NCBI GenBank assembly: GCA_029241965.1
Contig: JAPWVK010000159.1
Span: 1 to 34,086, forward strand
Direction: 5' to 3'
Origin: Candidatus Methanophagales archaeon
GTDB taxonomy: Archaea; Halobacteriota; Syntropharchaeia; Alkanophagales; Methanospirareceae
DNA: 34,086 bases
In this document: piece after piece, positions 1,227 through 26,800 of the stretch
Layout of the letters: every line of letters starts with the position of its first letter
How positions within the stretch are numbered: position 1 is the stretch's first letter
The notes under the pieces: generated by a model
Told to the model about the DNA's origin: nothing
What the model saw: the letters and a program-made list of their open reading frames with translations, nothing else
The model's database searches: none
Program-made: the position numbers and the translations under genes

Positions 1227-1574
1227 CTATATTTTTTCCCATTCTTTACGAATTTTGTAGGAATCGTTTTCTCCGAATATTATCGTTCTTCTGAGCTTTT
1301 TCAAAGCTTCTACTCTTTTTTGAGTCTTCGGACGAACCCATAAAAGACGATATATAAGATATATAAGATATGAAAAAATGAAGATTGAGATGATAAGTAG
1401 AGAAAACCGTAAACCAGAAATGATGGAAGTGATGTTATTAGCTGGTAAATTAGTTGTTCCTGCTGCAAATATAAGGGCTGTAATTGAAAGTGCAACTGCT
1501 ACAAGCAGAGTGATAGTTGGGGTAGTACTATCTTGGCTATTTTGTATTCTCTGTCGAGTAGAGCTCATAGCCAT
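1227..1574 (-). CDS. small hypothetical membrane protein (two hydrophobic helices); start uncertain
   Basis: 115-aa ORF with two TM-like stretches. Its first 7 codons (both candidate ATGs) lie inside domain VI of the adjacent group II intron, so the real 5' end is unclear. Confidence 0.35.
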
Positions 1575-2206
1575 CTCCTCCCGGAAGCTACTATGAGCCC
1601 CCTCACAGAACCGGACTTGAGGTTTTCCCTCATCCAGCTCTTCGGAAGAACCTCCCTACCCTTTACCGGATAGGTTATGAGTCCAGTTTTGTTGCCACCC
1701 TTTACCAGCCTCTTTGTGCGGTGGATGTGTCCCTGACCCAACGGTTCAACCGCCAGCCCCTTCCCTCCACGGGCATTACCCCGCTTCTCCGGTACTATGA
1801 ACTGGTCCGACTCCCAGAGTGTCGTCTGCACTATCTTACCGTTTATATGTTTGATAGGACATACTCCGGTAAGGAGAACACCCCGGGTCTCCCGAGTTAA
1901 CATAATATCCATTTGATACCGTGCCACGGTCTCAGACCCCGTCGGGCTCGCATCGCATCGCCACGTCCTATTAAGACTATCGGCGATGAGAGTACTGCCT
2001 TCCGCCAACCAAACAGCGTCGGCCACCGACACAATAAGAATTTCGTGGCTGAATCCCTTCACTTGCGTTGCAGCCCAGTATCCCATTCCCCTAGCTTCAC
2101 CACAGCCTGTTACCAGGCTGGATGCAAGGTTCAGTTCTGAGGTGGCGGCTAACCTTTCCTCAGGTTGGATTTCCACCAACTGGATATTATGAACTTTGCT
2201 CGGCAC
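1553..2206 (-). mobile_element. ORF-less group II intron, copy A (~654 nt)
   Basis: Domain V is on the minus strand at 1608-1640 (GAGCTGGATGAGGGAAAACCTCAAGTCCGGTTC, with the AGC triad). Domain VI follows, with a GGGA tetraloop, a GCTCATAG/CTATGAGC stem and a bulged A in CTCT-A-CTCGAC. The 3' end is ...GAC (AY rule) at 1553. The 5' end is GTGCC at 2206. No RT ORF is present; the 218-aa ORF 1565..2221 is a translation of structured RNA. Confidence 0.75.
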
Positions 2207-2292: not shown

Positions 2293-4026
2293 TCACACAT
2301 CCAACCTGAATATCTTCACCTCTTTGCTCTGATAAAACGGCATGTAACCCTCGATAGAGGGGTTAGTCCATAACCGGTAATAGTTAGTCCGATTTGTGAG
2401 CTCGTTCCGCCCGACCAATCGCCCGTTATCATCAAAATACATCCTGATTGACTCATTACTGGGTGTCAGACTGTAACCCGTGGCATAACCCATTATAGGT
2501 GTCAGATAAGCATCGTACTGAAAAAGCATCAGGTACACTTCCGAGCTATTATGCTTCTGTTTGAGTGTTCGCGCAATCTGCAAGCCTTTGTCCGGGTCCG
2601 TTGCCACGATGACCGCAGAAACCGCTTTTACTGTCTCATCAGGAATGTACATCTGGTCAATTACAGGCCTACGTTTCGCGAAATACGCCAATGAATTGCC
2701 GTGGTCCCACCAGTTGATAAATAGCGAATCTGCGGCTGTGTTGTTCTGGATGTACAAAAATGCTGCTTTCTTTTCTGGTTGGATGATATATCCGCCTGGA
2801 TAGCGCACTTCATTTACGGAACAAATGACAGGATTTACGAATGCGATGACTATGATTACGATAACAGCCACACTCGCAAGCTTTTTCCATACCGATTTTT
2901 GCCGTTCCTGCCCCTGTATTCTTTCTAATATGAACGAGGCACCGATGCCAAGCGAGATGTACACGAACATCGAGAACATATCCATGAAATGGTACGCCCG
3001 AACTGCCGGCATCATGGTAGCGAGCAGTGCGGCAAGGAGATACAAACCACTTCTTCCATCGCGTTTGTAAAGGCCATACACACCAACTGCGGTCATGACA
3101 AGCCCAACCAGCAGAAATGTCCCGAAAAGCGATTCAAAACTTTCTATGCGCGGCGGCATAAGGTCGCTTGTGAATTTATAGACCAAAGGACCTTCTGCAA
3201 ATCCCAGCATCTGTGCCGCTCTCAAGATTTCCACGGGTCCACGCACCGGATAGAGAATCAGCGCTATTATAGTGCCAAAGAACAGCGAGGAACAGATGAG
3301 CACCCACGTTTTCGGCAGATAACTCTTATATTGTTTCATAGAATCACGCTTGACCAAAACGGAAGTGGTTAAAAGGAGTGCATAAAAGATCAGTATCGCA
3401 TGAATGATGAAATATCCACCCCACGTGAAACCTGTGATGCCAATAAGAGCTGCGGGAGTGAGTATAGAAGCCAAATAGATAGCTCGATCCTTGAATCCCC
3501 TCGGAAACGGATTATCAACAGTTTTTAGTGCGTACCAAAAAGCGACAACCGTTAATAAGATTAGAAACAGAGAAAGAGCGTCGTGGAAGACGAACCCTTT
3601 CATGGTGCGTAAGATCAGAATATGAGAGAATGACGCGAGCACACCCGCAATGATTCCCGCAGACTTATTAAATAGGCTCGTTGCAAACCAGTATATAACC
3701 AGCACGGTAGCAGCACCGAGTAAGGGCGGCACCAGACCCTCAGCGATAATCATGCTTGGTTGCGAGAATTTGTAAGGAATGAGATCAATCAACCAGCCCA
3801 CGAAGGCAAGAAGATAAGCCATACCGGGCTGATATAACGGCGCTGAACTGAACGGGTCAGGAACTGCAGGATGTCCAAACGAATAGATATATTCTGCCTG
3901 TCTTGCCATATAAGCATCGTTATCCCATTTTGTCTCCCAAGTACCACCTAAAAAGCGTATGGCGAATGCTAAAATAAAGAGCAAGATAAAAGGAAACAGC
4001 TCTTCTATCTTCTTTCTTGCACTCAT
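2293..4026 (-). CDS. aglB: archaeal oligosaccharyltransferase AglB (STT3 family), short form
   Basis: 577-aa polytopic membrane protein. It has an N-terminal acidic loop motif (TKWDNDAYMARQ) and the diagnostic WWDxG motif (INWWDHGNSLAY) before a C-terminal soluble domain. Confidence 0.75.
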   Translation of the reverse strand: MSARKKIEELFPFILLFILAFAIRFLGGTWETKWDNDAYMARQAEYIYSFGHPAVPDPFSSAPLYQPGMAYLLAFVGWLIDLIPYKFSQPSMIIAEGLVPPLLGAATVLVIYWFATSLFNKSAGIIAGVLASFSHILILRTMKGFVFHDALSLFLILLTVVAFWYALKTVDNPFPRGFKDRAIYLASILTPAALIGITGFTWGGYFIIHAILIFYALLLTTSVLVKRDSMKQYKSYLPKTWVLICSSLFFGTIIALILYPVRGPVEILRAAQMLGFAEGPLVYKFTSDLMPPRIESFESLFGTFLLVGLVMTAVGVYGLYKRDGRSGLYLLAALLATMMPAVRAYHFMDMFSMFVYISLGIGASFILERIQGQERQKSVWKKLASVAVIVIIVIAFVNPVICSVNEVRYPGGYIIQPEKKAAFLYIQNNTAADSLFINWWDHGNSLAYFAKRRPVIDQMYIPDETVKAVSAVIVATDPDKGLQIARTLKQKHNSSEVYLMLFQYDAYLTPIMGYATGYSLTPSNESIRMYFDDNGRLVGRNELTNRTNYYRLWTNPSIEGYMPFYQSKEVKIFRLDV

Positions 4027-4063: not shown

Positions 4064-5977
<1,914 letters not shown>

Positions 5978-12490: not shown

Positions 12491-13903
12491 TTAAAGTATC
12501 GCTGTTTTCATCAGTCCCCGTATATACAACCGAGCCCATGAGTATGCTACTGTCACACCAATAATGTTTGCTACAACCAGGCCCCACCAGATGCCCACTA
12601 AGCCCAATCCAAGGTTGAACGCGAATACGGCTGCAAATAACGGAGTTAGAATGACTGTTCGTAAAACGGTGACAAGCAGTGCGGGAATCGCTCTGCCCGT
12701 TCCTTGAAAGACAGAAGAAGAGAGCATACCAAATGATATTGCAGGGTAGAATAGAGCGATTATCCGGAGAAAAATTGTCAAATCCGATGTTATATGTGCT
12801 GCACCCTCTGCTTGTGTAAATACCGCGGCGATCTGCGGTGCGAAAATGAAGGTTGCCGCTGCTATCGCTATCTCTATCATGATACCAATCTTTATTGCAT
12901 AGAGGTGCGCGATACTTATTTTCAAAAAGGCGCGTGCGCCAAAAGCAGCTCCGGTTACCGTAACAACGGCAGTAGCGATACCCATTGACGGCAGGACCGC
13001 TATACTTGCTACCCGCCAGCCGGTAGAATAGATTGCCACTCCATCGGTGCCGCCCACCATTACTATTAGGACGTTCAGGATAAGCATAGTGAACGACATA
13101 GAGAGCTGCATCACTGCAGATGGCAGACCAACTCTAAAAATATCCTTAACAATGCTTTTATCGTATTTGAAGTCGCGGAATGTGAATAATACATAGGTGT
13201 CCTTTTTGAATAGGAACCAGTTTAACATGATGATGGATGTAACGCCCAGCGATATGAGTGTAGCCCAGGCTGCACCGGCAATACCCAAACCAAGCGTGTA
13301 GATAAAAATAGGGTCTAATACGATATTCAGACCGGCACCCAATGCCATTGCATACATGGCTCGTTTGGCGTCGCCTTCACCCCGCAGTATTGCATTCGCT
13401 ACGCTAGTGAAAAATATGAAAATACTGCCGGCAAAGATAACCCTACCGTAGGCTACTGCCATAGCTAAGGTTCCACCCGCACCTATCAGAGCGAATATCT
13501 CCGCTGCAAAGGCGAAAAGCGGTATGGTGAAAGCAACTGCGACTATCACCGTTATAATGAGTGTATGAACTGCTACGTTATCTGCACCTACCTTATCCCG
13601 CGCACCGATCCTACGGGATATAGCCGACCCTGCTCCTACGCCCAATCCGTTGGACAGAGCCATAGCCATAAAGAAAAATGGGAAGACGAAACCAATGGCA
13701 GCGAGTGCGTCTGCACCGAGACCCGACACCCAAACGGCATCAACAAGATTATAGATGGTCTGCATGGACATAGCCGCAATCATAGGCAATGCAAGTTTGA
13801 TAATGCCTTTTTTCGGGTCGCCAAGTAAAGTCTCTACGCCTTTCGTTCTCTTGTTCTGTGATGACTCCGCAGAAATGTCTTTTCCTGATAATTTAGTATT
13901 CAT
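12491..13903 (-). CDS. MATE-family multidrug/toxin efflux transporter
   Basis: 470 aa with about 12 TM helices. The N-terminal signature LALPMIAAMSMQTIYNLVDAVWVSGLG and the internal duplication are typical of MATE (NorM/DinF-like) proteins. Confidence 0.88.
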   Translation of the reverse strand: MNTKLSGKDISAESSQNKRTKGVETLLGDPKKGIIKLALPMIAAMSMQTIYNLVDAVWVSGLGADALAAIGFVFPFFFMAMALSNGLGVGAGSAISRRIGARDKVGADNVAVHTLIITVIVAVAFTIPLFAFAAEIFALIGAGGTLAMAVAYGRVIFAGSIFIFFTSVANAILRGEGDAKRAMYAMALGAGLNIVLDPIFIYTLGLGIAGAAWATLISLGVTSIIMLNWFLFKKDTYVLFTFRDFKYDKSIVKDIFRVGLPSAVMQLSMSFTMLILNVLIVMVGGTDGVAIYSTGWRVASIAVLPSMGIATAVVTVTGAAFGARAFLKISIAHLYAIKIGIMIEIAIAAATFIFAPQIAAVFTQAEGAAHITSDLTIFLRIIALFYPAISFGMLSSSVFQGTGRAIPALLVTVLRTVILTPLFAAVFAFNLGLGLVGIWWGLVVANIIGVTVAYSWARLYIRGLMKTAIL

Positions 13904-14211: not shown

Positions 14212-14530
14212 GAAGCTGCATCGCAGATTGCCCGTGCGGCTACCCCCGCCATTCGGGGTAATCCTACTGCGGAACACGTCGGGGGTAACGCTTGCGTGGT
14301 AAGCTCGCAGGACAACGTGGAAAATCAGAAAGTCCGATTTGGATCAACTGCCAGGATAAGAACGCTATTTGTTGACAAGAAGTTGCATCACCGATTGCCT
14401 AACCGGGTACCCCCGCCATTCGGGGTAATCCTACCGCGGAATGCGCGGATGGGAACGTCCACGTAGTAAGCCCGCGGAACAACGTGTAAAATCTGAAAGT
14501 CCGGTTTAGATCAACTGCAAGGATAAAAAC
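14212..14530 (+). repeat. tandem duplication (2 x ~167 nt) covering the 5' exon-intron junction and 5' part of group II intron B
   Basis: Unit 1 (14212-14378) is GAAGCTGCATCGCAGATTGCCCGTGCGGCTACCCCCGCCATTCGGGGTAATCCTAC.... Unit 2 (14379-14530) is GAAGTTGCATCACCGATTGCCTAACCGGGTACCCCCGCCATTCGGGGTAATCCTAC.... The GTGCG 5' splice motif is present only in unit 1. Confidence 0.75.
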
Positions 14531-15155
14531 ACCATGAAGAGCGTAAAGCGAACCATTGTAAGAGTCGTCACGTATAATAAGCGAAAACGGACTGTTACGC
14601 TTGGACCAAAAGGTACGGAATTTGGCCATAATGGCTACCATAACGTTATGGTGGGTGGACATACGATTCCCGGCTTACAGGCGGCTTCTAAGGTGTTCAT
14701 AAATATCTGTGATGTAGAACGTGGTAAGCCCTATATGCTCCCGGAATCACAGGGTAGGGACCTCGTAAGGGTAAACGATGGCTTAGAGGGTAGAGGATTT
14801 GGTAAAAAGCGAATGGCATCTTGTAATGAAAGGTATAGGGGTTCGAAATTTGCCCTAACCCGAAAGGGTGCTGACTTACCAAATTGGTGTTCCATTGTAT
14901 GCTTGGAGGCAGAATGTAAGTAGTTCAATTACGCCTGTAATAGGCGAGCGACTTACAGACATTCAACCAAAACGCCGATATCATATGGAAAGAGGTTGAA
15001 GAACTTGTTAACAGGTTGCAAACCTGAATTACAAAAGCAGTTAACTGCTGCCCGATACAGAAAGGGTTATGAAATGCTTGAGCGGTATGAAGGGAAACTT
15101 TCACGTACCGTTCTGAGACGAGGAGGGGCGAGCAATCGCCCCATCCTTAGTCTGC
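14234..15155 (+). mobile_element. ORF-less group II intron, copy B (~0.9 kb including the internal duplication)
   Basis: The 5' end is GTGCG at 14234. Domain V is a canonical 34 nt at 15080-15113 (GAGCGGTATGAAGGGAAACTTTCACGTACCGTTC), with the AGC triad, a GAAA loop and a 2-nt CG bulge. Domain VI has a GCAA tetraloop (GGGGCGA-GCAA-TCGCCCC) and a bulged A at 15149. The 3' boundary is only approximate (+/-10 nt). There is no RT/maturase ORF. Confidence 0.8.
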
Positions 15156-15171
15156 TAGCTAAACAAATAAT

Positions 15172-16419
15172 TCAAAATGACTTCGTCAATTCCTCTACTA
15201 TCGCGTTGGCTATCAACTTCTTCGCGCCTTTCACATGCTTTATATCCACCGCACCTGCGCTTAAAATGAACACATCGTTATCTTCGGTTCCTATTCCACC
15301 CTTGCCAACGTCATTTGCAACTACCATCGCAAGGTTGTAGCTCTCCATCTTTTCCCGCGCTCTTTCTATCAGTTCATCATCAGAAACGTGCGTCTCCGCT
15401 TTGAATCCCACGATAACGAGTTTCGGGAATTCTTTACGTACTTCTTCTATCAGTTTCGGAGTGGGGACAAGAGTCAGATGGAGCTCGCCTCCTGATGGGA
15501 TTTTCGTATCTACCGAATTACCGGTAAAATCGGCGATCGCCGCTGAGGATATAAGCGCATCGTATTCTTTACCGTTCTTTTTACCCTCACGTAGTTCATT
15601 AACGCAAGCATCAATCATTTCTTGCGCTGTTTCCACCCGGATTTCTTTTATCCCTGTTAAATCCAGTGCTCTGCTGTGTACGAGTGTGACTTCGGCTCCC
15701 TGCGTGTATGCCGCCCTTGCGAGTTCTACACCTGTTCGTCCAGAGCTTCGGTTTGTTAAAATCCTTATCGGATCTATCGGCTCAATGGTCGCACCTCCTG
15801 TAATGATGATGCGTCTTCCCAGAAGATTCTTTGGCGAGAGTACACGCTCAATGGTAAGAACCATATTCTCGATTGATACGATCTTAGCAAGCCCTTCCTC
15901 TATTTTCGGCCCTATGACGGTTACACCGAGCCTTTTCAGCTTATTGAGGTTCTCTATCAGAACAGGACTCTTATATATAGTCTCGTGCATCGCCGGCACC
16001 ACAATAATTGGTATTTCAGAGCCGAAGGCAGTGGTTGCAAATGCAGTCACCGTGGTGTCCGACACGCCCGTAGCGATTTTATTTAACGTGTTTGCAGTGC
16101 ATGGTGCGACGATAAACAGGTCTGCGAAACCTTCCATACCCAAGAACTCTACATGCTCTATATTACCCATTAGTTTCGTTATCACTTCGTGACCCGTGGC
16201 GTAATGAAGCGTATAAGGGTGAATTATTTCGGTTGCCGCTTCACTCATCACGCCGTACACATCTGCACCATGCCGTACTAGTTCGCGTGCGAGTTCAACA
16301 GTTCTTACTGCTGCGATAGAGCCCGTAACACCCAGAACTATCTTCTTATCTAACAGAGACTGGCTTTTTGTTCCTTTGATGCGCAGGGTCGGATGCGGCC
16401 CCCTATCTCTTTTTGTCAT
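15172..16419 (-). CDS. coaBC: bifunctional phosphopantothenoylcysteine decarboxylase / phosphopantothenate-cysteine ligase (CoaBC, Dfp)
   Basis: The N-terminal flavoprotein half has KKIVLGVTGSIAAVRTVELARELVRHGADV and a PCTANTLNKIA-type motif (APCTANTLNKIATG). The C-terminal ligase half has ITGGATIEPIDPIRILTNRSSGRTG and AAIADF. The start is placed at the Met at 16419 because the longer ORF (to 16479) overlaps tRNA-Ala. Confidence 0.9.
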   Translation of the reverse strand: MTKRDRGPHPTLRIKGTKSQSLLDKKIVLGVTGSIAAVRTVELARELVRHGADVYGVMSEAATEIIHPYTLHYATGHEVITKLMGNIEHVEFLGMEGFADLFIVAPCTANTLNKIATGVSDTTVTAFATTAFGSEIPIIVVPAMHETIYKSPVLIENLNKLKRLGVTVIGPKIEEGLAKIVSIENMVLTIERVLSPKNLLGRRIIITGGATIEPIDPIRILTNRSSGRTGVELARAAYTQGAEVTLVHSRALDLTGIKEIRVETAQEMIDACVNELREGKKNGKEYDALISSAAIADFTGNSVDTKIPSGGELHLTLVPTPKLIEEVRKEFPKLVIVGFKAETHVSDDELIERAREKMESYNLAMVVANDVGKGGIGTEDNDVFILSAGAVDIKHVKGAKKLIANAIVEELTKSF

Positions 16420-16421
16420 AA

Positions 16422-16494
16422 TGGACTGGTCGGGATTTGAACCCGAGGCCTCTCGCACGCCAAGCGAGTGATCTTCCAACTGATCTACCAGCCC
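16422..16494 (-). tRNA. tRNA-Ala (anticodon GGC)
   Basis: The 73-nt cloverleaf was folded by hand. The acceptor GGGCTGG pairs with CCAGTCC and includes the G3:U70 alanine identity pair. The anticodon stem CTCGC/GCGAG carries loop TTGGCGT. The T-arm is TCGGG-TTCAAAT-CCCGA. The discriminator is A and no CCA is encoded. Confidence 0.93.
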
Positions 16495-16979: not shown

Positions 16980-17783
16980 CTATTTCCTCTTTACGTAGTA
17001 ATAAAAACCTACAATGCCAATTATAACCAAAGCGACAATTAGAATGATTAAGAGTTTGTACGTTTGTTTTGGCGACACAGGCGCAGGAGTAATTGTTACC
17101 GTGGGTGCAGGTGTTGCAGTTATTGTTTGTTTAGTCAATGCAGGAGTTACTGCGGGCGCATCAGAACCAGGATAGGAATGTTGGTCATTCGGATCGGTTC
17201 CTACAAACGTCTCATCTATGTCGCGATAACCGTCTCCATCTGCGTCCGTTTCTCCGCCCGCGCCACTCCGATTATATGGTGGTGTGGTAGTCACTACGTA
17301 TAACAGCCCATTTCTTGCGGCTGACGTTCCGAAATTGCCCTCGGGATCCGACAATTCGATATCACTCAGCGTCATATGGCTATAATTTATCGAATCAGAT
17401 GTTCTTTCCACGCTAAAGTTGAGCAAAGCAATTGAACCACTTGACCCATTTGATATGGCATATGCAAAAGGACCAGCGAGTGAAACACGAGTCCCCCCCT
17501 CAAAATCGTTGTTAAACCCTAAAACATTCCATTCCAACGTTAGTTCCCCTCTTAAAACGTTTGTAACGTTTATGACTCGCTTGTCATAAGCTATATTAAA
17601 TACAATAGCTTGAACCGGCCCGTTTTTTACTGTTGTTATATTTACTGGCACGATTACATGTGTTCCCTGCACTCCACTTGCATCTACCAGACCAAAACCA
17701 TCGGCACTTGGCTGTGCAGATACGGGTATCAGTGCTATTACCAAACACATGCCTATTCCATACGCTAACGTTTTAATATTCAT
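16980..17783 (-). CDS. cohesin-domain surface protein with Ca-binding TSP3-like repeat, Thr/Pro linker and C-terminal TM anchor
   Basis: The signal peptide is MNIKTLAYGIGMCLVIALIPVSA; the start is set at 17783 rather than 17822. The cohesin-like domain has GTHVIVPVNITTVKNGPVQAIVFNIAYDKRVINVTNV...GSIALLNFSV...LSDIELSDPEGN. It also has a DADGDGYRDIDETFVGTDPND repeat. The C-terminal anchor is LLIILIVALVIIGIVGFYYYVKRK. Confidence 0.75.
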   Translation of the reverse strand: MNIKTLAYGIGMCLVIALIPVSAQPSADGFGLVDASGVQGTHVIVPVNITTVKNGPVQAIVFNIAYDKRVINVTNVLRGELTLEWNVLGFNNDFEGGTRVSLAGPFAYAISNGSSGSIALLNFSVERTSDSINYSHMTLSDIELSDPEGNFGTSAARNGLLYVVTTTPPYNRSGAGGETDADGDGYRDIDETFVGTDPNDQHSYPGSDAPAVTPALTKQTITATPAPTVTITPAPVSPKQTYKLLIILIVALVIIGIVGFYYYVKRK

Positions 17784-17794
17784 TTCTTTCTCCG

Positions 17795-18661
17795 TTATAC
17801 AACCCTTATTGCAGGAACCCAATCATCGTATATCTCCCCGTTTGCGTCCGTGAATTTGGTGCAGGTAATTTCTCCGCCTGTTACGTTTATTCTATGTTCG
17901 TGTACTATCTGCGGATATGATCCTGTTTTTATTGTATAGTTGTACTTTTTACCTTCTCTTAATTTAAATGTATTCGTGAAATTTATGTTTTGATACTCGT
18001 CATTGTAACCGTTCCATGAGGCACTTTCATTCACGCCATGCCCCTGAATCCAAACGTATTCGGTATGCCCGCCTGTGCCTTCACAGGAATACGTATAGAG
18101 TGTATGCACGGTAATATCAGCATTCGGCGTAATCGTTCCTATGTGTATGCCGGAGATGGAGGGATAGGTGCCTGGGCCCGTATGGAATATTGTTTTTTCG
18201 AGCACATTTACTGAGATCGGAATCCTAAGGCCAGAATATTCATTTCCACCAATATTTGTATCCTGAAATTGAATATACATCCTTCTCTCATCGGAATGCC
18301 CTACTTCGCATGCGCTTCCCGACGTTGCGCCATATAATCCTGGTTCGGCATTCTTTGGTATCTTGATTGTAACAGTAAAAGTTTTTATTTCTCCACTCTT
18401 GATCGTGTACTTCTCTGGTTCGACTCTGATCCATGATGTAATGTTAATCAATTCTTCATCATCTTTCTCTACATGCTCGTAATATACGGACCAATATCCA
18501 GTTCTCTCAGTAGGTATTGTCCCCACTAGTGTGATATTTTGATTTAATGTATCACCCGGACAGCCTTCCCAGTTGCACATAGAGCGGCAATCAACCGATG
18601 TCGCGGATGCCGCCGGAACGCACAACAGTGCAATCAACATTATCAGTATTATTTTCTTCAT
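17795..18661 (-). CDS. secreted surface protein: N-terminal Ig-like domain (paralog of 30464..31722 proteins) fused to a conserved C-terminal beta domain shared with 18800..19729
   Basis: 288 aa with a signal peptide. The N-terminal half aligns with 30464..31066 and 31063..31722 (CxxEGxxGD...TSWIxVxPExYTIKxGE...PGLYGATS...GHSxERRxYI). The C-terminal ~130 aa (YPSISGIHIGTITPNADITVHTLYTYSCEGTGGHTEYVWIQGHG...) is near-identical to the C-terminus of 18800..19729. Confidence 0.75.
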   Translation of the reverse strand: MKKIILIMLIALLCVPAASATSVDCRSMCNWEGCPGDTLNQNITLVGTIPTERTGYWSVYYEHVEKDDEELINITSWIRVEPEKYTIKSGEIKTFTVTIKIPKNAEPGLYGATSGSACEVGHSDERRMYIQFQDTNIGGNEYSGLRIPISVNVLEKTIFHTGPGTYPSISGIHIGTITPNADITVHTLYTYSCEGTGGHTEYVWIQGHGVNESASWNGYNDEYQNINFTNTFKLREGKKYNYTIKTGSYPQIVHEHRINVTGGEITCTKFTDANGEIYDDWVPAIRVV

Positions 18662-18799
18662 AATTACCTGTACTATTTTCGTATTAAAAGTACTTTATTA
18701 ATTTCATGCTCTTTGGTGTTTCCTTTGGCGCTATTACCAAACACAGCGCACTAATGCTTAATCCATACGCTAACGTTTTAATATTCATTTCTTTCTCCG

Positions 18800-19729
18800 T
18801 TATACAAACCTTATTGCAGGAACCCAATCATCGTATATCTCCCCGTTTGCGTCCGTGAATTTGGTGCAGGTGATTTCTCCGCCTGTTACGTTTTTGCTAT
18901 GTTCGTGTACTATCTGCGGATATGATCCTGTTTTTATTGTATAGTTGTACTTTTTACCTTCTACTAATATAAATGTATTCTCGAATTCTATGTTTTGATA
19001 ATCGTCATTGTAACCGTCCCATGAGGCACTTTCATTCACGCCATGCCCCTGAATCCAGACGTATTTGGTATGCCCGCCTGTGCCTTCACAGGAATACGTA
19101 TAGAGTGTATGCACGGTAATATCAGCATTCGGCGTAATCGTTCCAATGTGTATGCCGGAGATAGAGGGATAGGAGCCCTGACCCGTATCGAATAAAGTTC
19201 CGGTAGTATAAAACGTCCCGTTCTTCACTGGTGCTGGTCCTTCGTTACCAGACGGATCCGACAATTGAATATCACTCAGGTTCATGTCAGTTTTATATGG
19301 TGCACCGCCTATGACGCGGAAGTTAAGAAGGACGACAGAACCACTTGAGCCATTCAGTATGGCATGAGCGGATGGTCCTGAGAGTAAAACACGGGTACCC
19401 CATGCAAAGTTGTTGTTAAAGCCTAAATTGCCCCAATTAGACGTTAGAGTACCTCTTGAAACGCCTGTAACGTTTATAACCGTCTTGTCATACGCTATGT
19501 TGAATACAATGCCTAAAATCGGACCGCTGCTTGTATTTGTAATGTTTACCGGCACGGTTACATAAGTCCCTATAAGCCCATTGGCATCGTCAACACCGAA
19601 ATTATCTGCGGTGGGCGCCGCCAGAGCCGTTAACTCAAATATAGCAAATACCGTTAACAACCCGAATATAGCTAAACCCCCTCTCAGTCCTATTAAGCCT
19701 CTTCGTTTCCTCGATGCGGTTTTTTTCAT
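18800..19729 (-). CDS. cohesin-domain surface protein fused to the shared C-terminal beta domain
   Basis: 309 aa. It has a signal/TM segment and a cohesin-like domain (GTYVTVPVNITNTSSGPILGIVFNIAYDKTVINVTGV...GSVVLLNFRV...LSDIQLSDPSGN). The EGTGGHTKYVWIQGHG domain follows. Confidence 0.75.
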   Translation of the reverse strand: MKKTASRKRRGLIGLRGGLAIFGLLTVFAIFELTALAAPTADNFGVDDANGLIGTYVTVPVNITNTSSGPILGIVFNIAYDKTVINVTGVSRGTLTSNWGNLGFNNNFAWGTRVLLSGPSAHAILNGSSGSVVLLNFRVIGGAPYKTDMNLSDIQLSDPSGNEGPAPVKNGTFYTTGTLFDTGQGSYPSISGIHIGTITPNADITVHTLYTYSCEGTGGHTKYVWIQGHGVNESASWDGYNDDYQNIEFENTFILVEGKKYNYTIKTGSYPQIVHEHSKNVTGGEITCTKFTDANGEIYDDWVPAIRFV

Positions 19730-19760
19730 TGTAGTATAATATTTCTTTGGTAAAGCTTTT

Positions 19761-20810
19761 TCATTTCTTCTTTCGCAACCAAAGGTATCCCATGAGTACG
19801 AGCAATCCTCCAGAAACGAGGGTCATTGTACTCCATTCAGGAATCGGGTAGCCCGGGTCCGTTCCGGGTGATGATATGTAGCTCCATGCCATACCGGTCT
19901 GCACCTTGTAGTCATAGCTCGTATTGTTGTTTGTCAGATTGAGTGCTAAAAACTTTCCTGCCGGCACAGTAAACGCTGCTGCGGTTGTTTCAAACGAGAA
20001 GACGCTTTTGCTGCCGTTTCCAGTCAGTGTTGCCTGTGGTCCTCCGGCAGTAAAATTGGTGCCACCCGAAGAATTACCTATCTCAACCTTGAATGTATCT
20101 CCGTCTGCCGGTGCCGCGACAAACGTTATCTGCCCTGTCCAATTGTTGCCATTCACTGGAAAGGTAACGTCTGTCTGCGCCGCTGAATCCGCAACCCAGA
20201 TATGAGAGTCGCTGTGGTTTATGGTAATATTACCCTGTGGTTTGGTCTGGTTTCCCTTGTACATCTCGCTGTCGTTGTGCAGATACCAGGACTGTGTGCC
20301 GCTGACAGTAAAAGTCCCATTCTTTGGGGGGGCAGATCCTATTCTATAACCGCTTACATCTGAGAAGCTTATATTTACATACGTAAAGTTCATAGTACTT
20401 GTTTCACCCCGAGTTCCAATAACGCTGAAGTTGAGTAGAGCGACAGAACCACTTGACCCATTTGATATGTTATATTCGGCAGCTCCCGTCATGTAAACAC
20501 GAGTACCCCATGTAACGCTGTTGTTATAGTCGAAATTATTCCAACTAGACGTTAAATTACCTTTTAAAACGTCTGTAACGTTTATGACATTTTTGTCATA
20601 CACAATATTAAATATTATTCCCAAAAGTGGACCGTTGCTAACATTTGTAATGTTCACCGGCACAATCACCGAAGTCCCATGTGCGCCACTCGCATCGTCC
20701 ACACCAAAACTTTCCGCAGTAGGATCTTGTGCTGAAACAGGCATCGCCATTACAAGTACTGACAACAGCACGATTGCACTTAGTCCATGCACCCATCTAT
20801 TTCTATTCAT
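19761..20810 (-). CDS. cohesin-domain surface protein with a second beta domain and a C-terminal sorting/anchor signal
   Basis: 349 aa with a signal peptide. The cohesin-like domain has GTSVIVPVNITNVSNGPLLGIIFNIVYDKNVINVTDV...GSVALLNFSV. The C-terminus is PIPEWSTMTLVSGGLLVLMGYLWLRKKK: a motif, a TM helix and a basic tail, resembling PEF/PGF-CTERM archaeosortase-type signals (inference). Confidence 0.75.
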   Translation of the reverse strand: MNRNRWVHGLSAIVLLSVLVMAMPVSAQDPTAESFGVDDASGAHGTSVIVPVNITNVSNGPLLGIIFNIVYDKNVINVTDVLKGNLTSSWNNFDYNNSVTWGTRVYMTGAAEYNISNGSSGSVALLNFSVIGTRGETSTMNFTYVNISFSDVSGYRIGSAPPKNGTFTVSGTQSWYLHNDSEMYKGNQTKPQGNITINHSDSHIWVADSAAQTDVTFPVNGNNWTGQITFVAAPADGDTFKVEIGNSSGGTNFTAGGPQATLTGNGSKSVFSFETTAAAFTVPAGKFLALNLTNNNTSYDYKVQTGMAWSYISSPGTDPGYPIPEWSTMTLVSGGLLVLMGYLWLRKKK

Positions 20811-22343: not shown

Positions 22344-23801
22344 TTATACCGCTTCTCCCAACACCGACACCGTGGATGTGTCCGTTCCCGACCCTTTCAG
22401 CTCGTATGCCAGATACAAGTCATTGTAAGTTCCTACGGATACTGTTACCCCTGTATCTTTATAGCTACCCCATGACTTTAGAGTAGTCCAGCTACTGACC
22501 GCCCAGGGGCTCGTGTCATCTACGGTTACATTACAGAAATGAACCGGATAACTCTCTATGGCTGAAGACGTATTTGCATCCCTGACGAAGCATGCTAGCG
22601 TTATTGTCTCCCCTACGGTGTAACTATTTTCGTCAGGAGGCAAATCCCATGTTACGTTTGACCAGCCCCACTTAACCACCGACTCATTCTGATAAGAGCT
22701 GTTAGAATTAGATGCATTGTCATAAGTTGTTTCGGTAATATTGTATTCTCCGTCCTCAGGGACGGACAAAGTAACGACAAAAGTTCCATTTGTGGCGTTT
22801 GTAGTTGAATTGACTATCTTTCCTTCGTAAGGCACTTTGTCTATTTTCTTGATGATTACAGGTTTATTATTCTCATCAAGGGCGACCAAAATTCTTCCAT
22901 CCGAAATCTTCTGGTAGATGTTTTCTATCCTTATAAGAGAGAATTTATTTATATACCCGTTGCCAATATTATCAGTGGTGGTAGAAATGTCGGAAGTCGA
23001 AATCAGGTTTAAAGTTCCCACGGGATTGAAGGAAGAGATGGAAGAGCTTCCGGGAATGGAAGAGATGGTTGTAGAATTCATAAGGCTGAAGATTTTCGAG
23101 CATGAATTGAAGAAGTCTAAGGAATTACAGAGGTTCATATTTGAGTCGTTGTCCGCAAAGAGCAAATTGACGCTGGCAGATGCTATTGAACTTGGGGCGA
23201 AAATGAAGGAAGGAATGCTTGAAGAGCTCAAAGAGAAGGGATTACTGTAGATGAGACTGGTTGTGGATGCAAATGAGCTGTTCGCGGGGATAATCGCTAA
23301 AGGTAAGGAATTACAGAGTTGGACGCTGGACATATTATTTTCAGATGAAGTTGAATTGTTCGCACCTTTCATATTGCTTGCCGAATTGGAGAAGAACAGG
23401 GATGAGATAAGGGAAAAGTCAGGATTTTCCCTGAGGGATTTTGATGTGTTCGTTGGCATCCTCAAGTTAAGAGTCGGATTTATCCCTCTGGAGCGGTTTT
23501 TAGCTAAGATTCCGGAGGCTAAGGAGTTGGCACCGCATTTAAAAGATGTCGAATATTTCGCATAAGCATTGAAACTTGATTGCCCAATCTGGACGCAAGA
23601 AAAAGCGTTCAAAAAACAATCTGTAGTCAAGGTGTTCTCAACTCTTGATTTGTTTTCGTTTTTATCCGAGACAGGCCCATAGCCCGCTAAAGAGGTTGAA
23701 GGATATTTTGGATTGACTGAAGTGTAAACCTTATGCTCTGGCGAAAACGTCAGAACTGTTTCGTATCTACTCAAATCCATAAATCTTATTTTTTGCTTCA
23801 T
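22344..23801 (-). CDS. orphan 3' fragment: decayed Hint unit (no Cys1, truncated block F/G) fused to a shortened copy of the giant protein's C-terminal domain; probably a remnant or silent cassette
   Basis: Its ATG overlaps the giant gene's stop (ATGA at 23798-23801). The N-terminus KQKIRFMDLSRYETVLTFSPEHKVY aligns with QKPIKYLEYDY...LLVSPEHKVY. The middle ~230 aa is a Ser-rich translation antisense to TA cassette c. The C-terminal ~190 aa aligns with the giant protein's C-terminus. The last ~100 nt are about 90% identical by eye to 23798-23895. Confidence 0.55.
   Translation of the reverse strand: MKQKIRFMDLSRYETVLTFSPEHKVYTSVNPKYPSTSLAGYGPVSDKNENKSRVENTLTTDCFLNAFSCVQIGQSSFNAYAKYSTSFKCGANSLASGILAKNRSRGINPTLNLRMPTNTSKSLRENPDFSLISSLFFSNSASNMKGANNSTSSENNMSSVQLCNSLPLAIIPANSSFASTTSLIYSNPFSLSSSSIPSFIFAPSSIASASVNLLFADNDSNMNLCNSLDFFNSCSKIFSLMNSTTISSIPGSSSISSFNPVGTLNLISTSDISTTTDNIGNGYINKFSLIRIENIYQKISDGRILVALDENNKPVIIKKIDKVPYEGKIVNSTTNATNGTFVVTLSVPEDGEYNITETTYDNASNSNSSYQNESVVKWGWSNVTWDLPPDENSYTVGETITLACFVRDANTSSAIESYPVHFCNVTVDDTSPWAVSSWTTLKSWGSYKDTGVTVSVGTYNDLYLAYELKGSGTDTSTVSVLGEAV
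22987..23250 (+). CDS. small antitoxin-like protein, cassette c (antisense inside 22344..23801)
   Basis: Starts MSEVEIRFKVPTGLKEEMEEL and ends ...GAKMKEGMLEELKEKGLL. Layout and length match the antitoxins of cassettes a and b. Its stop abuts the PIN start (TAG-ATG). An AT-rich TATA-like ATTTATTTATATA lies about 35-45 nt upstream. Confidence 0.6.
   Translation: MSEVEIRFKVPTGLKEEMEELPGMEEMVVEFIRLKIFEHELKKSKELQRFIFESLSAKSKLTLADAIELGAKMKEGMLEELKEKGLL
23251..23682 (+). pseudogene. PIN-domain (VapC-like) toxin, cassette c, interrupted by an in-frame TAA at 23563-23565
   Basis: Starts MRLVVDANELFAGII.... It reads ...APHLKDVEYFA-stop-ALKLDCPIWTQEKAF...SETGP, compared with cassette b ...SPDPNDVDFFALALKLNCPLWSEDKLL...SLISP. 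The stop replaces a Leu (TTA to TAA). Homology continues in frame to TAG at 23680-23682. Confidence 0.6.
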
Positions 23802-26800
23802 ACCGCTTCTCCCAACACCGACACCGTGGATGTGCCCGTTCCCGACCCTTTCAGCTCGTATGCCAGATACAAGTCTTTGTGTGTTCCTTTGGATACTCTT
23901 ACCCCTGTATCTTTATAGCTACCCCAAGATTTTAGACTAATCCAGCTACCAACAGCCCCGGGGCTCGTGTCATTTGCGGTTACGTTAAACTTCTCGTCAT
24001 TTATTATTGTTGACCAACCGTTCACCTCTTCTACCTTCAGCCAGATCTTGTATTCAGTCGAAGAAGAAGGATTGTAAATTGTAACTACTGGTGAGTTACT
24101 GGTCACATTTTGCGGGTTGCCGCTGCCGTCCGCATTATTGTGTGGGTCAACTACTGTGGCACCAGTTGCACCCGAGAAGTTAATGGAACTGATACTCTGC
24201 GAAGCAGTTTGATTTCTGATTTCAAGTGTCGTTGCGTATGACAACTCTATGGATGTATTGGCTTCATCATCCGCAGTGACGTTATAAAACAGCGTGGCAT
24301 TATCCGTGATATTACATTTTGGATAGTACCATCCTACTGCCACGCCTGATGTATCCCAATCCAGGACGGCATATCCGCTGCTATTCGTGTAATTCAGACC
24401 AAGGTATGTCACGGTAGAGTCAGTCTTGTTATAAAAACGAACCGGATAATTCTCTATGCCCGATGAGGTATTGACATCGCGGACAAGGCATGTTAGCGTT
24501 ATTATCGCACCTGATTCGTAACTACTTCCGCCGGAAGGCGAGCCCCACGTTACGTTTGACCAACCCATCTTAAACACCGATTGATTTTGATACGAGATAT
24601 TATAATTCGATGCGTTATCATACATCTCTACCGACACGTTGTATTTCCCCTTAGCAGCACTTGAATTTAGATAAAAACTCGCATTTACATACGAATTTGG
24701 TGTGTAAGCAGTATCCGACGACGAATTGATGGTCGCAGTAGCGTTGTATATCGTGACCGTGTAGTTCTTTGGATTATCCTCCGTGTACGAGAAGTTGACA
24801 TAAAACTGCTCGCCGCCCTTCTTGTAGATTGGAACGGAAGTTGTAGGCACGTCTATCGTGATAGTCGGTGATTGCGAATCTATGGTGAAGTTCGTACCGA
24901 GCCACGTCTCTGACGTCTCGCCCTCATCGTCTGTTGCCACGCAATGCAACGTATAGAGTCCGGGACTATAATTGGATGCGTTGAACGCTATATCGGCAAT
25001 CCCGCCAGCGGCATCCGCTTCGGTAAAAGTATTGTTTACTATCGAAATAAATGTCTGGTTCGGATAGCACAAAGTCAGATTATGAACCACTGTGCCGCCG
25101 TCCGGATCGGTCGCAACCCCAACACCAATATCGAATATACCGTCATAGCTACCATTCATATCATAGTCCTTTACACCACTGATATTGAAATACCTAATGT
25201 GCGGGACGGTAGGTGGATAGTGCACCAATCTGATGTCGTTTGTAAGCAGCGTTGAATTGCTCCAACTACCCGATGCGTTTGCTGCATACAGCTTCATCTG
25301 GTGCTGCATACCACTTTTAGAGTAGTCGAAAAATAACTTCGGCGTCCATGCCGCCTGCAAAAATGACGAGCCATCATTGGTACTCGTCCATGCAACGTTT
25401 GTTTGCGCAAACGATATGTTCATACCGCTCGTACCATCTACATACGCCAGGCGGTACTCATTGCTTGTAGCTGTCGGAGATCGGAAGTATATGTATCCAT
25501 GCGGTGTTGTGTTTACGTCAGAACCTATAACCCTGCTATTGTTCACACCAATCGTAAAGGTCACGAACGAACTGTTGTACGGCTCGTACGTGTAATCATC
25601 TACTGTTGTGCCAGTGTACGAAGTCAAGTAAGTATAATATGGACTTTCGAGTGGCTTACCGCCAGTGATGTTATACGAGTCGTTTAGGTAGTAAATATCA
25701 AGATTGTTCGATGCTCCCAGATCGGTTGCCTCGAAAGCGATATGTATTTTATAGTCCGAAGAACCTTTAATTGCTTCAGTGTCCCAGAACTTGACCAGAG
25801 CAGCACGGTATCCTGTTGAGCCCTGTTTATAGATGTCATAATATTTGCTAATCTCTTTCTGCATCCGCGTCCTATCTAAGTAATACATGTTCTCAAATAC
25901 AGTATTCTCAACCGTGCCATTCCAGTGCACATACGAGTGCGTGTCATTTACCTTTTGGATAGTAAGCCGGGAAGTGTTTTCATCCGCGCCCGCCCATTTC
26001 CAGACGTTGCCCTCTGTGATGGTGGCATTATCCTCAAAGTTCAAGCGCTGTATTGTAGCATTCCGGTTATCGGCACGTAGAATCTGCTCGTTGCATAAAG
26101 CCCATACCGCAGATTTGTTGTTGCTCGGAACACGGAGTGACCAGTTATAACTATCGAGCACCGAGTCCCAGAGCGTCCAGACGAGCGATACGCTGCTGTT
26201 ATTGAGTGTATGTGTAGCATCCGTAGTAACCAACCAGGTTACGTTGAATGCACCGGTCGAGTTCTCGTAAATCGTAGCCGGCTCCTGCGAGATGAGTTCA
26301 AATGTCGGACAGCCCGCCTGATTGTATGCATAATCGACGTCACCACCAAATCGAAACTCTAATGCGTGTTTGCCCGAAGTTAAAACCTTACTTGTTTCGT
26401 AGCTGGTTTCGTTACAGGAATAATTGTGTATGAATAAGGAATTGTTTCGCCATTGATAATCCAGTGTGCGATTGCCGCATTTCAGGGCAAGCAATTGCAG
26501 GTCATAGTTTGAGTTGCCGCACCAGACAGGCGTTGAGTTTTTACGCCGTATTAAAAGTATGCGGTTCGGGACGGTAACAGAGTAAATCTTGCCGTTATAA
26601 GGGACTTCTTCGATTTTTTTTACTGCTACGGGATTCTGTTCGGAATCGAGGAATACTAACTGTTTGTCGGGTAGCTCGTGGAGTTCCGAGATTTTTAGCA
26701 ATGAATAGGTATTTAAACCGTTCGGATTTATAGTATTAGTGATGACGGTTTCTTTTTCATTCACGGTCACAGGCATCGAGAAGTTATTTAAATACAGCAA

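Follow-up and report, generated by a model that had tools for sequence, protein, structure and literature searches.

Group II introns without an open reading frame (ORF) of their own occur in archaea and bacteria; the ORF-less derivatives of Methanosarcina acetivorans are reportedly those detailed by Dai and Zimmerly in 2003, and a further example is the Trichodesmium dnaN intron. Such ribozyme-only derivatives depend on the reverse transcriptase (RT)/maturase of a related full-length copy (PMC4424553, PMC12584367). The intron-encoded proteins (IEPs) of bacteria lie wholly in intron loops and bring a ribosome-binding site of their own, whereas fusion with the 5′ exon is an organellar trait (PMC3073962); the RT ORFs of the organellar introns aI1 and aI2 are translated as fusions using exon signals (PMC3073962). 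A proteobacterial IIB1 lineage that inserts at start and stop codons has a CL1-type RT and a 300–700-nt insertion at the base of domain I (PMC12584367). Here we analyze 34,086 nt of a Candidatus Methanophagales archaeon (contig JAPWVK010000159.1 of assembly GCA_029241965.1; the window), whose minus strand carries, between aglB and a small membrane-protein gene, a group II intron that has lost its RT gene. Like the archaeal and bacterial ORF-less introns named above, it is a ribozyme-only derivative of RT-encoding introns; it is crossed from end to end by a stop-free reading frame. Coordinates are collected in Table 1, and a slash in a sequence marks a splice site.

An Rfam covariance-model scan, proposed in an earlier sequence-only reading of this DNA, gave two matches on the minus strand. 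The domain I core matched RF02005 (group-II-D1D4-6) over the entire model (positions 1–225 of 225, 112.5 bits, E 2.6e-31), and RF00029, the model of domains V and VI, matched 1553–1642 with 49.9 bits against a gathering score of 40. With 13 RT-less copies as input, RNAalifold gave a consensus structure of 192 pairs, and compensatory double changes were seen in 61; seven of the 192 are non-pairs in the window copy, the family range being 3–9, and the ribozyme is conserved as RNA. The branch-point A of domain VI is the seventh nucleotide from the intron 3′ end and is followed by CUCGAC, and its consensus column (763) is unpaired between pairs 702–762 and 701–764. The window copy has the domain V, the domain VI with a bulged A and the domain I–IV architecture of a group II intron, with no RT in domain IV and close relatives that carry one. 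It is a real group II intron whose RT gene has been lost.

The family was sampled by using the translated 218-aa ORF that crosses the intron as a probe, with one genome per species, which yielded 80 loci. In nhmmer searches, many of these loci match the window element in two pieces, as positions 1 to ∼535 and ∼528 to 654 flank an insert of ∼1.26 kb; the window element is therefore an RT-less derivative. The insert of the full-length relatives encodes an RVT_1 domain (residues 267–496 of a 652-aa ORF) and no endonuclease domain, and the PDB structures closest to this RT are the group II RTs 7uim and 6ar1. A short hairpin takes the place of the insert in the window copy and in 14 other complete copies. 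Judging from these alignments, the window copy is a deletion derivative of the ∼1.95-kb introns of anaerobic methanotrophic archaea of group ANME-1 and other anaerobes. No RT gene was found in the 34-kb window. As the copy itself has none, its splicing or mobility would need an RT from a full-length relative. Members of the family were also observed in bins assigned to Dehalococcoidia, Bacteroidota, Deltaproteobacteria, Elusimicrobia, and one thaumarchaeon (L005, a Nitrosotalea metagenome-assembled genome, MAG; the bacterial MAGs L010, L021, L027, L032, and L072), which reflects either cross-domain spread or binning errors.

The intron boundaries were set by comparison with the family. In nhmmer searches with the window intron and in the family alignment, the 3′ end at 1553 is the same in more than 50 relatives (...CTACTCGAC/), and it is independently confirmed, since homology to intron-less loci starts exactly at 1552. 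Near the 5′ side the copies are sharply bounded by G(T/C)GCCGAG, and the exact end was given by the pairing of exon-binding site 1 (EBS1) with intron-binding site 1 (IBS1), the last six nucleotides of the exon. Among 55 relatives, all six positions pair in 26 copies and five of six in 19. The covarying EBS1-IBS1 combinations are UCAUGU-ACAUGA, UCAUUU-AAAUGA, CUGUGU-ACACAG, CUGCGU-ACGCAG, CCGUGU-GCACGG, UCGUGU-GCACGA, UUGGUU-ACCAA, and GGCUUU-AAAGUU. The exon stretch paired to EBS1 always stops 2 nt short of G(U/C)GCCGAG, so that the first nucleotide of the window intron is G2208. The family then starts with G-(U/A/C)-G-(U/C)-G, which corresponds to the canonical GUGYG except at the variable second base. 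The window copy starts with GAGUG (U2 to A), as do ∼20 relatives, and in other GAGUG copies the exon pairing stops just before GA (e.g., ACGCAG/GA in L030 and GCACAG/GA in L038). A CUCCUU hairpin near intron position 340 was considered as EBS1 and dropped, its loop showing no covariation with exons.

These results confirm part of what the sequence-only reading had claimed. It correctly recognized a group II intron, its domain VI with a bulged A and the 3′ end at 1553, and it rightly called the element ORF-less in the sense of lacking an RT, domain IV being a 20-nt hairpin compared with ∼1.26 kb in full-length relatives. It had also placed the element in a lineage different from that of a second intron of the window (14244–15155), and the two indeed have no detectable similarity and match different Rfam D1–D4 models. 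Its domain V (1608–1640) exists with slightly wider limits. The 5′ end was misplaced: GTGCC at 2206 implied a length of ∼654 nt, a distance of 87 nt to aglB and the ligated junction GGGGGGGA/AGAGAAUAC, while the intron is 656 nt long, the spacer 84 nt, and the predicted junction, shifted by 2 nt, ...GUUUGGGGGGG/AGAGAAUAC. Because of this shift, a different upstream frame joins the downstream ORF. The run of eight G (2208–2215) that it took for the end of the 5′ exon is found in three assemblies and is real, but its last G is intron nucleotide 1, and the exon ends in G7.

The 218-aa frame contains no internal stop codon, compared with 15 and 12 in the other two frames, and has 281 homologues, many of them 208–230 aa long with 98% coverage and identities down to 58%. 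It is open from end to end in eight of the 15 complete RT-less copies, and polymorphic stop sites number 0 in this frame and 20 and 23 in the others. In the eight intact RT-less copies (74–92% nucleotide identity), the differences by codon position are.157/.170/.152, and the ratio of nonsynonymous to synonymous differences (pN/pS) is.82, compared with.85 and.75 in shifted control frames. The RT part of full-length relatives, our positive control, yields.114/.086/.328 and a pN/pS of.16, and their ribozyme part.106/.140/.108 and.95. Replicates within and between other subfamilies agree: the ribozyme frame is free of amino-acid-level constraint. AlphaFold2, run on the ORF with 20 homologues, gave a pLDDT of 32.6 and a pTM of 0.12; no Pfam family matched the ORF, and its C-terminal third is read in another frame in other RT-less copies. 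Hence neither amino-acid selection, nor a foldable product, nor membership in a protein family marks it as a protein gene. The 218-aa ORF is kept stop-free and is unconstrained as a protein. In the sequence-only reading, conservation of this ORF would have spoken against an intron; it is conserved, but as a frame over RNA and not as a protein. Some database proteins (P0004, P0101) join the ribozyme-encoded frame to upstream host domains (PF01663, PF01314), the open frame at these loci running on from the host gene into the intron.

In full-length relatives, the stop-free frame is continuous with the RT ORF. Single ORFs extend from the exon to domain VI in L017 (655 aa), L020 (666 aa), and L025 (651 aa); their TGA lies 12 nt short of the 3′ splice site. 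The fused ORF of L012 and L013 stops just before domain V. About 100 of the top 120 protein clusters retrieved with the L017 ORF are 570–661 aa long and cover 87–100% of that ORF, with identities as low as 55%, and several carry the annotation group II RT/maturase. The AUG is supplied by the exon only in 22 copies, by the intron only in 13, by both in two, and by neither in 36. The exon AUG of the 22 copies sits at −4 to −2, IBS1 being NNAUGA, and where it is absent (13 copies), the AUG lies 13–18 nt inside the intron. The third source of an AUG is a ∼55-nt expansion of the first domain I hairpin (L095–L099; subfamily 3). The 36-copy group has early stops and a standard 443-aa RT with a Shine–Dalgarno (SD) sequence GAGGUG and an AUG in domain IV; the frame upstream is open for 136–149 codons, and its UGA overlaps the domain IV AUG (AUGA). 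In subfamilies 1 and 3, the domain IV SD is weakened, the ATG has become GTG, the preceding in-frame stop is gone, and the frames are fused. Ribosomes coming from a captured host start would translate domains I–III to reach, or to make, the RT.

Capture of a host start codon is what the exon pairing predicts. Of the 13 copies with a UCAU loop, 12 have ATG, GTG, or TTG at −4 to −2, followed by A, and often an SD 5–9 nt upstream. An EBS1 of UCAUNN selects an IBS1 of NNAUGA, and therefore the exon AUG of the host gene is captured; UCAU-EBS1 introns lie in host ORFs between nucleotide 4 and nucleotide 5. When ATGA is joined to the 3′ exon, the resulting N-termini look native, such as MSLERREFLKTVGAGALAA with its twin-arginine (Tat) signal and MKKRILTLLLVLFLG... 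of a beta-lactamase family protein; other spliced hosts begin with signal peptides, with a RAMP domain from residue 4, or with MTHFR from residue 8. Of the long 3′-exon ORFs (at least 60 codons), 12 of 18 are in the frame that follows ATGA splicing. An AUG in domain VI, 16 nt before the 3′ splice site (SD-AUG-N13/), reads the 3′ exon in this spliced-mRNA frame. In subfamily 3 the corresponding sequence is AAGGAGGTTaAgATGTCTACTCGAC/, and gene callers place the starts of host genes there; in the window copy, the 218-aa frame ends in a stop codon that overlaps the domain VI AUG (AUGA, 1565–1568). We infer that the SD and AUG of domain VI form an initiation region, which would let the host protein come from unspliced RNA, possibly by termination–reinitiation at the AUGA overlap.

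Several further observations concern targets and arrangement of the family. The subfamily with EBS1 CUGUGU (L036, L038, L046, L047, L057, L078, L079, and others) is flanked by inverted short-repeat arrays, CACAGAG.. upstream and CTCTGTG.. downstream, and it seems to target a long hairpin or a repeat element and not the start of a gene. At certain loci (L005, 4681–4700; L059, 5536–5560; L037, 5431–5444), the domain VI tail of another copy (GCTCTACTCGAC) comes after the intron, or a second intron stands 12 nt away. Given these adjacencies and the resemblance of the domain VI AUGAG to the family IBS1, the introns seem to home into each other. Finally, L097 and L098 have identical 5′ flanks and introns and different 3′ exons, a beta-lactamase-family gene and a HEAT-repeat-like lipoprotein gene, due either to recombination between intron copies or to metagenome assembly chimeras at the repeat.

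A wide reading of these data is that the whole clade (Rfam D1–D4 type 6) combines EBS1-guided insertion at start sites, translation of the RT from a host or intron AUG and re-initiation in domain VI, and that the window copy is a relic with the domain VI start as the sole start. The UCAUNN loop would then direct insertion between ORF nucleotides 4 and 5, a host SD and AUG or an intron AUG at the 5′ end would drive the RT via the stop-free but otherwise unconstrained frame of domains I–III, and the host protein would come from spliced and unspliced RNA alike; such a clade would be common in ANME-1 and other anaerobic archaea and bacteria. We consider this reading about as likely as not.

The window copy departs from the family in its surroundings. 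It is not at a start codon, and relatives insert after the AUGA of host ORFs. Its EBS1, UUGGUU, which is the sequence of the ACCAA-targeting copies L011 and L012, can form with the exon GGGGGG only G-U pairs and leaves two mismatches. On the 3′ side, an intron-less allele was found (L084–L088), its empty site GGGGAAATTTATAATGA/AGAGAATAC corresponding to the cognate family target AATGA/A. On the 5′ side, four aglB relatives with 82–88% nucleotide identity lose homology 9–17 nt past the stop codon (∼2276–2284) and all differ downstream; none of the four has the intron or the G tract, and none provides an empty-site allele. The comparison with intron-less alleles suggested by the sequence-only reading could thus be made for one side. 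An exact metagenome search with the 5′-flank probe GTTCGTACAGAGTTCTGGAG returned 0 matches, and the ANME-1 GoMg2 contig, whose aglB is near-identical, ends within that gene. Similarity between the 5′ flank and the sequence that encodes the N-termini of the membrane-protein homologues is not significant (Smith–Waterman shuffle, p ∼0.6); a forced alignment that looks conservative in amino acids was rejected by the same test.

The gene in the 3′ exon is truncated. Its homologues at intron-less loci (P0122–P0125) are 140–153 aa long and have ∼35 additional N-terminal residues. Compared with them, the 3′ exon downstream of the window intron contains an additional A (ACAAAAT), which leaves the remaining ORF in the frame of the domain VI AUG and would put it off-frame if spliced from a homologue-like 5′ exon. 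Both possible ATGs (1572–1574 and 1566–1568) are inside domain VI; an exact look-up of the 115-aa version gave no database record, and the 113-aa version is recorded. The truncated gene probably starts at the domain VI AUG.

The cognate 3′ target, the unrelated 5′ exon, and the indel taken together indicate that the copy is most likely at a rearranged junction. The site is not a normal homing site, as the 3′ exon is cognate and the 5′ exon, the aglB trailer with G7, is not a recognizable target. The intron itself looks like a mosaic: positions 1–94 are 98% identical to L019/L020, positions 142–282, including EBS1, are 100% identical to L011/L012, and positions 424–470 are closest to L004/L005. 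Most likely, the window copy would splice poorly or not at all; it is an ordinary non-autonomous intron at an odd junction, probably decaying.

The explanation that we favour, with moderate confidence, joins these elements: a non-autonomous, RT-less intron with a stop-free frame that encodes no protein, the start-site architecture of its family, a rearranged junction in the window, and translation of the truncated gene from the domain VI AUG. Several points weigh against it. Translation through the ribozyme is deduced only from stop avoidance and ORF architecture, and the RT could start instead at an internal GTG in domain IV. The domain VI AUG lies within the conserved basal helix, and GGAGG pairs with CCUCC/CUUCC, so that both could be conserved for structure alone. 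Insertion after AUGA accounts equally well for the enrichment of host ORFs in the spliced frame. Over the final ∼100 nt (domains V and VI), near-invariance of the sequence is enough to keep two of three frames free of stops. The explanation also offers no origin for the G7/G8 tract. Moreover, intron positions 164–253, including EBS1, are bridged by one MEGAHIT contig (k = 141) only, and an independent SPAdes assembly breaks exactly there; consequently, the EBS1 mismatch, the mosaic pattern, and the linkage of aglB to the membrane-protein gene may be assembly artefacts.

This last point leads to the alternative that the window is a chimera in which two intron copies were collapsed, the one next to aglB being known up to ∼163 nt and the one in the membrane-protein gene from ∼254; the two junctions of the window intron would then belong to different elements. 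The ENA assembly ERZ4220366 does split the locus, with L002 ending at intron position 163 and L101 starting at 254; L003 also ends within the intron, copies from other genomes match the bridging segment with 100% identity, and L097 and L098 share a 5′ flank and differ in the 3′ exon. However, the two split contigs are equal in coverage (23.6x and 23.8x), the gap is only ∼90 nt, the assembly behind the window contig used k = 141, and the +1 indel is in keeping with a gene that has become independent of its original 5′ exon. We consider a chimera unlikely, though deserving of attention.

Rather improbable, in our opinion, is a different purpose of the stop-free frame, namely that it keeps the long intron RNA covered by ribosomes and so avoids premature transcription termination or decay of untranslated RNA (by Rho in bacteria and by FttA/aCPSF1-type termination in archaea), with the RT starting internally. 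Avoidance of stops with no amino-acid constraint, the open frames of RT-less copies, and a possible internal GTG at the standard domain IV position would all agree with such a role. It does not explain why subfamilies 1 and 3 have a weakened standard SD and a GTG in place of ATG, nor why the stop before this GTG was removed and the frames fused, nor why three independent placements of a 5′ AUG correlate with openness of the frame.

The model of the sequence-only reading was a spliceable intron within the small gene, where the junction GGGGGGGGA/AGAGAAUAC would restore an ORF from a GTG 13 codons upstream. That junction does leave 13 open codons upstream that share the reading frame of the downstream ORF, and the ribozyme core looks intact. 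But by family covariation the splice site lies 2 nt further upstream, and the conserved G5 is missing from GUGCC, whereas G-N-G-Y-G fits all copies. In the shuffle test above, the 5′ flank does not significantly resemble the N-terminal region of intron-less homologues, whose ∼35 additional N-terminal residues are absent here; none of the EBS1 sequences seen in the family pairs with the G7 exon, and there is no RT in the window. We regard this model as very unlikely. What survives from it is that the downstream ORF takes its ATG from inside domain VI and that the 5′ end of the small gene has been remodelled, by truncation and probably a domain VI start and not by way of the GTG extension, which relied on the wrong splice site.

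True dual coding, that is, a functional protein overlapping the ribozyme, can practically be dismissed: the 281 homologues with their coverage and identity, and a frame open against 12–15 stops in the other two, would fit it, but three-base periodicity is absent, pN/pS resembles that of control frames where the same test finds strong constraint in the RT, the C-terminal third changes frame among RT-less copies, and neither the AlphaFold2 model nor Pfam indicates a protein.

Around the intron, the neighbouring genes on the same strand are those for GyrB, AglB, the membrane protein, and a CAP-domain protein. The 90% cluster of AglB includes a protein of ANME-1 cluster archaeon GoMg2, which identifies the host as an ANME-1/Methanophagales archaeon, and the DNA was matched to contig JAUWNM010000011.1 of assembly GCA_030612635.1. 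The block downstream of the 3′ splice site that is shared with intron-less loci ends sharply at 1090, 36 codons into the next ORF (MPRKIDL...GRW/); the homologues stop after 40 aa, and beyond 1090 the window frame runs on into the CAP-domain protein with a second Met and a signal peptide. The block looks like a cassette-like mosaic. Its 3′-transduction together with the intron was considered and rejected, as there is no evidence for it and no plausible splice-site mechanism. Elsewhere in the window, the second group II intron (plus strand) gives two adjacent RF02012 (D1D4-7) matches and one RF00029 match, has no RT ORF, and lies between a MatE gene (12491–13903, minus) and coaBC/dfp (15172–16479, minus), on the strand opposite to both. 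The TTG listed as start of the 435-aa coaBC ORF overlaps a tRNA (16422–16494, minus, 64.3 bits), and therefore the real start must be further downstream. A 2220-aa ORF (23798–30460, minus), which combines an MG2 domain with an intein splicing domain (residues 596–930), adjoins three cohesin-domain proteins (16980–20810).

Table 1. Features of the intron locus in the window
Feature	Position	Strand	Basis or remark
RT-less (ORF-less) group II intron, 656 nt	1553–2208	−	Rfam matches; boundaries from family alignment (>50 copies); RNAalifold
Intron 5′ end GAGUGCCGAGC; 5′ splice site between 2209 and 2208	2198–2208	−	EBS1-IBS1 register in 55 relatives
Domain I core	1927–2173	−	RF02005 match
EBS1 loop GUUUGGUU of hairpin 2003–2018	2007–2014	−	Homologous to relatives' exon-covarying loops
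Domain IV remnant, hairpin CCUAUCC-GGUAAA-GGGUAGG, 20 nt, in place of RT ORF	1655–1674	−	Alignment to full-length L017, L012
Domain V, catalytic hairpin with GAAA loop	1607–1641	−	RF00029; 14 conserved pairs
Domain VI, bulged branch-point A at 1559	1556–1604	−	Consensus structure
SD-like GGGAGGAG, distal 3′ strand of domain VI	1575–1582	−	GGAGGUG in relatives; canonical AAGGAGGU in subfamily 3
218-aa stop-free frame across whole ribozyme, ATG 2219–2221 (5′ flank), TGA 1565–1567	1565–2221	−	
113-aa membrane-protein ORF, ATG 1566–1568 in domain VI; alternative 115-aa start at 1574	1227–1568	−	Called in NCBI and ENA assemblies (P0121)
463-nt block, 94.8% identity to intron-less L084–L088	1090–1552	−	blastn; sharp ends at 3′ splice site and 1090
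5′ flank, 84 nt, aglB trailer ending in G7	2209–2292	−	Identical in L001, L002, L003
STT3/AglB gene	2293–4026	−	
gyrB	4064–5974	−	
CAP-domain gene		−	

The combination of an RT-fused stop-free frame, start-codon capture by IBS1, and a start site in domain VI appears to be undescribed in the literature that we searched; we found there nothing on group II introns of ANME or Methanophagales or on start-codon insertion in archaea, and no mapping of RF02005 to a structural or IEP class. The family contradicts the textbook view that a prokaryotic IEP is confined to domain IV and has a ribosome-binding site to itself, as its frame is open from the 5′ splice site while synonymous sites of the RT have neared saturation. 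It bears on how translation and ribozyme folding coexist in cells with no nucleus, on how mobile introns limit damage to host genes, and on how they get into protein-coding genes, start-codon targeting being explained here by a simple base-pairing rule. In practical terms, hundreds of database entries, hypothetical proteins of ∼215–225 aa and RT/maturases of 600–660 aa, represent translated ribozyme sequence.

Compared with known ORF-less introns, the window copy differs from those of Methanosarcina, which nest inside other introns, and a stop-free frame over the whole ribozyme has been reported for none of them. As far as this can be tested, the family falls outside the archaeal IEP types of complete genomes (aCL1A, aCL1B, aC, and aD; PMC8919778), and we assign it to no class. 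Similar to the relatives described here, the proteobacterial IIB1 lineage (Avi.groEL, EcKTE56.groEL; PMC12584367) inserts within or next to initiation or termination codons. Unlike that lineage, the window copy has no large insertion at the base of domain I, the basal stem closing at columns 6–10/370–374 and the element being 656 nt long, and the expansion in subfamily 3 is only ∼55 nt, compared with 300–700 nt. Moreover, the RT here lacks the endonuclease domain and is fused to a host AUG, and codon targeting is explained by the EBS1 UCAUNN, whereas a rule of this kind is not known for IIB1 introns. Similar to the yeast and organellar aI1 and aI2, the family has an ORF that runs from the 5′ exon through domains I–III into domain IV (PMC3073962). 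On the other hand, those are IIA/ML introns with endonuclease-containing proteins that are processed proteolytically, and the fused exon part in our family is only the start codon plus one nucleotide. Finally, in group IIC-attC introns with Pout, expression signals on the 3′ side restore a cut-off downstream gene (PMC3001079); Pout is a transcriptional promoter, whereas the SD and AUG of domain VI would act as a putative start site for translation.

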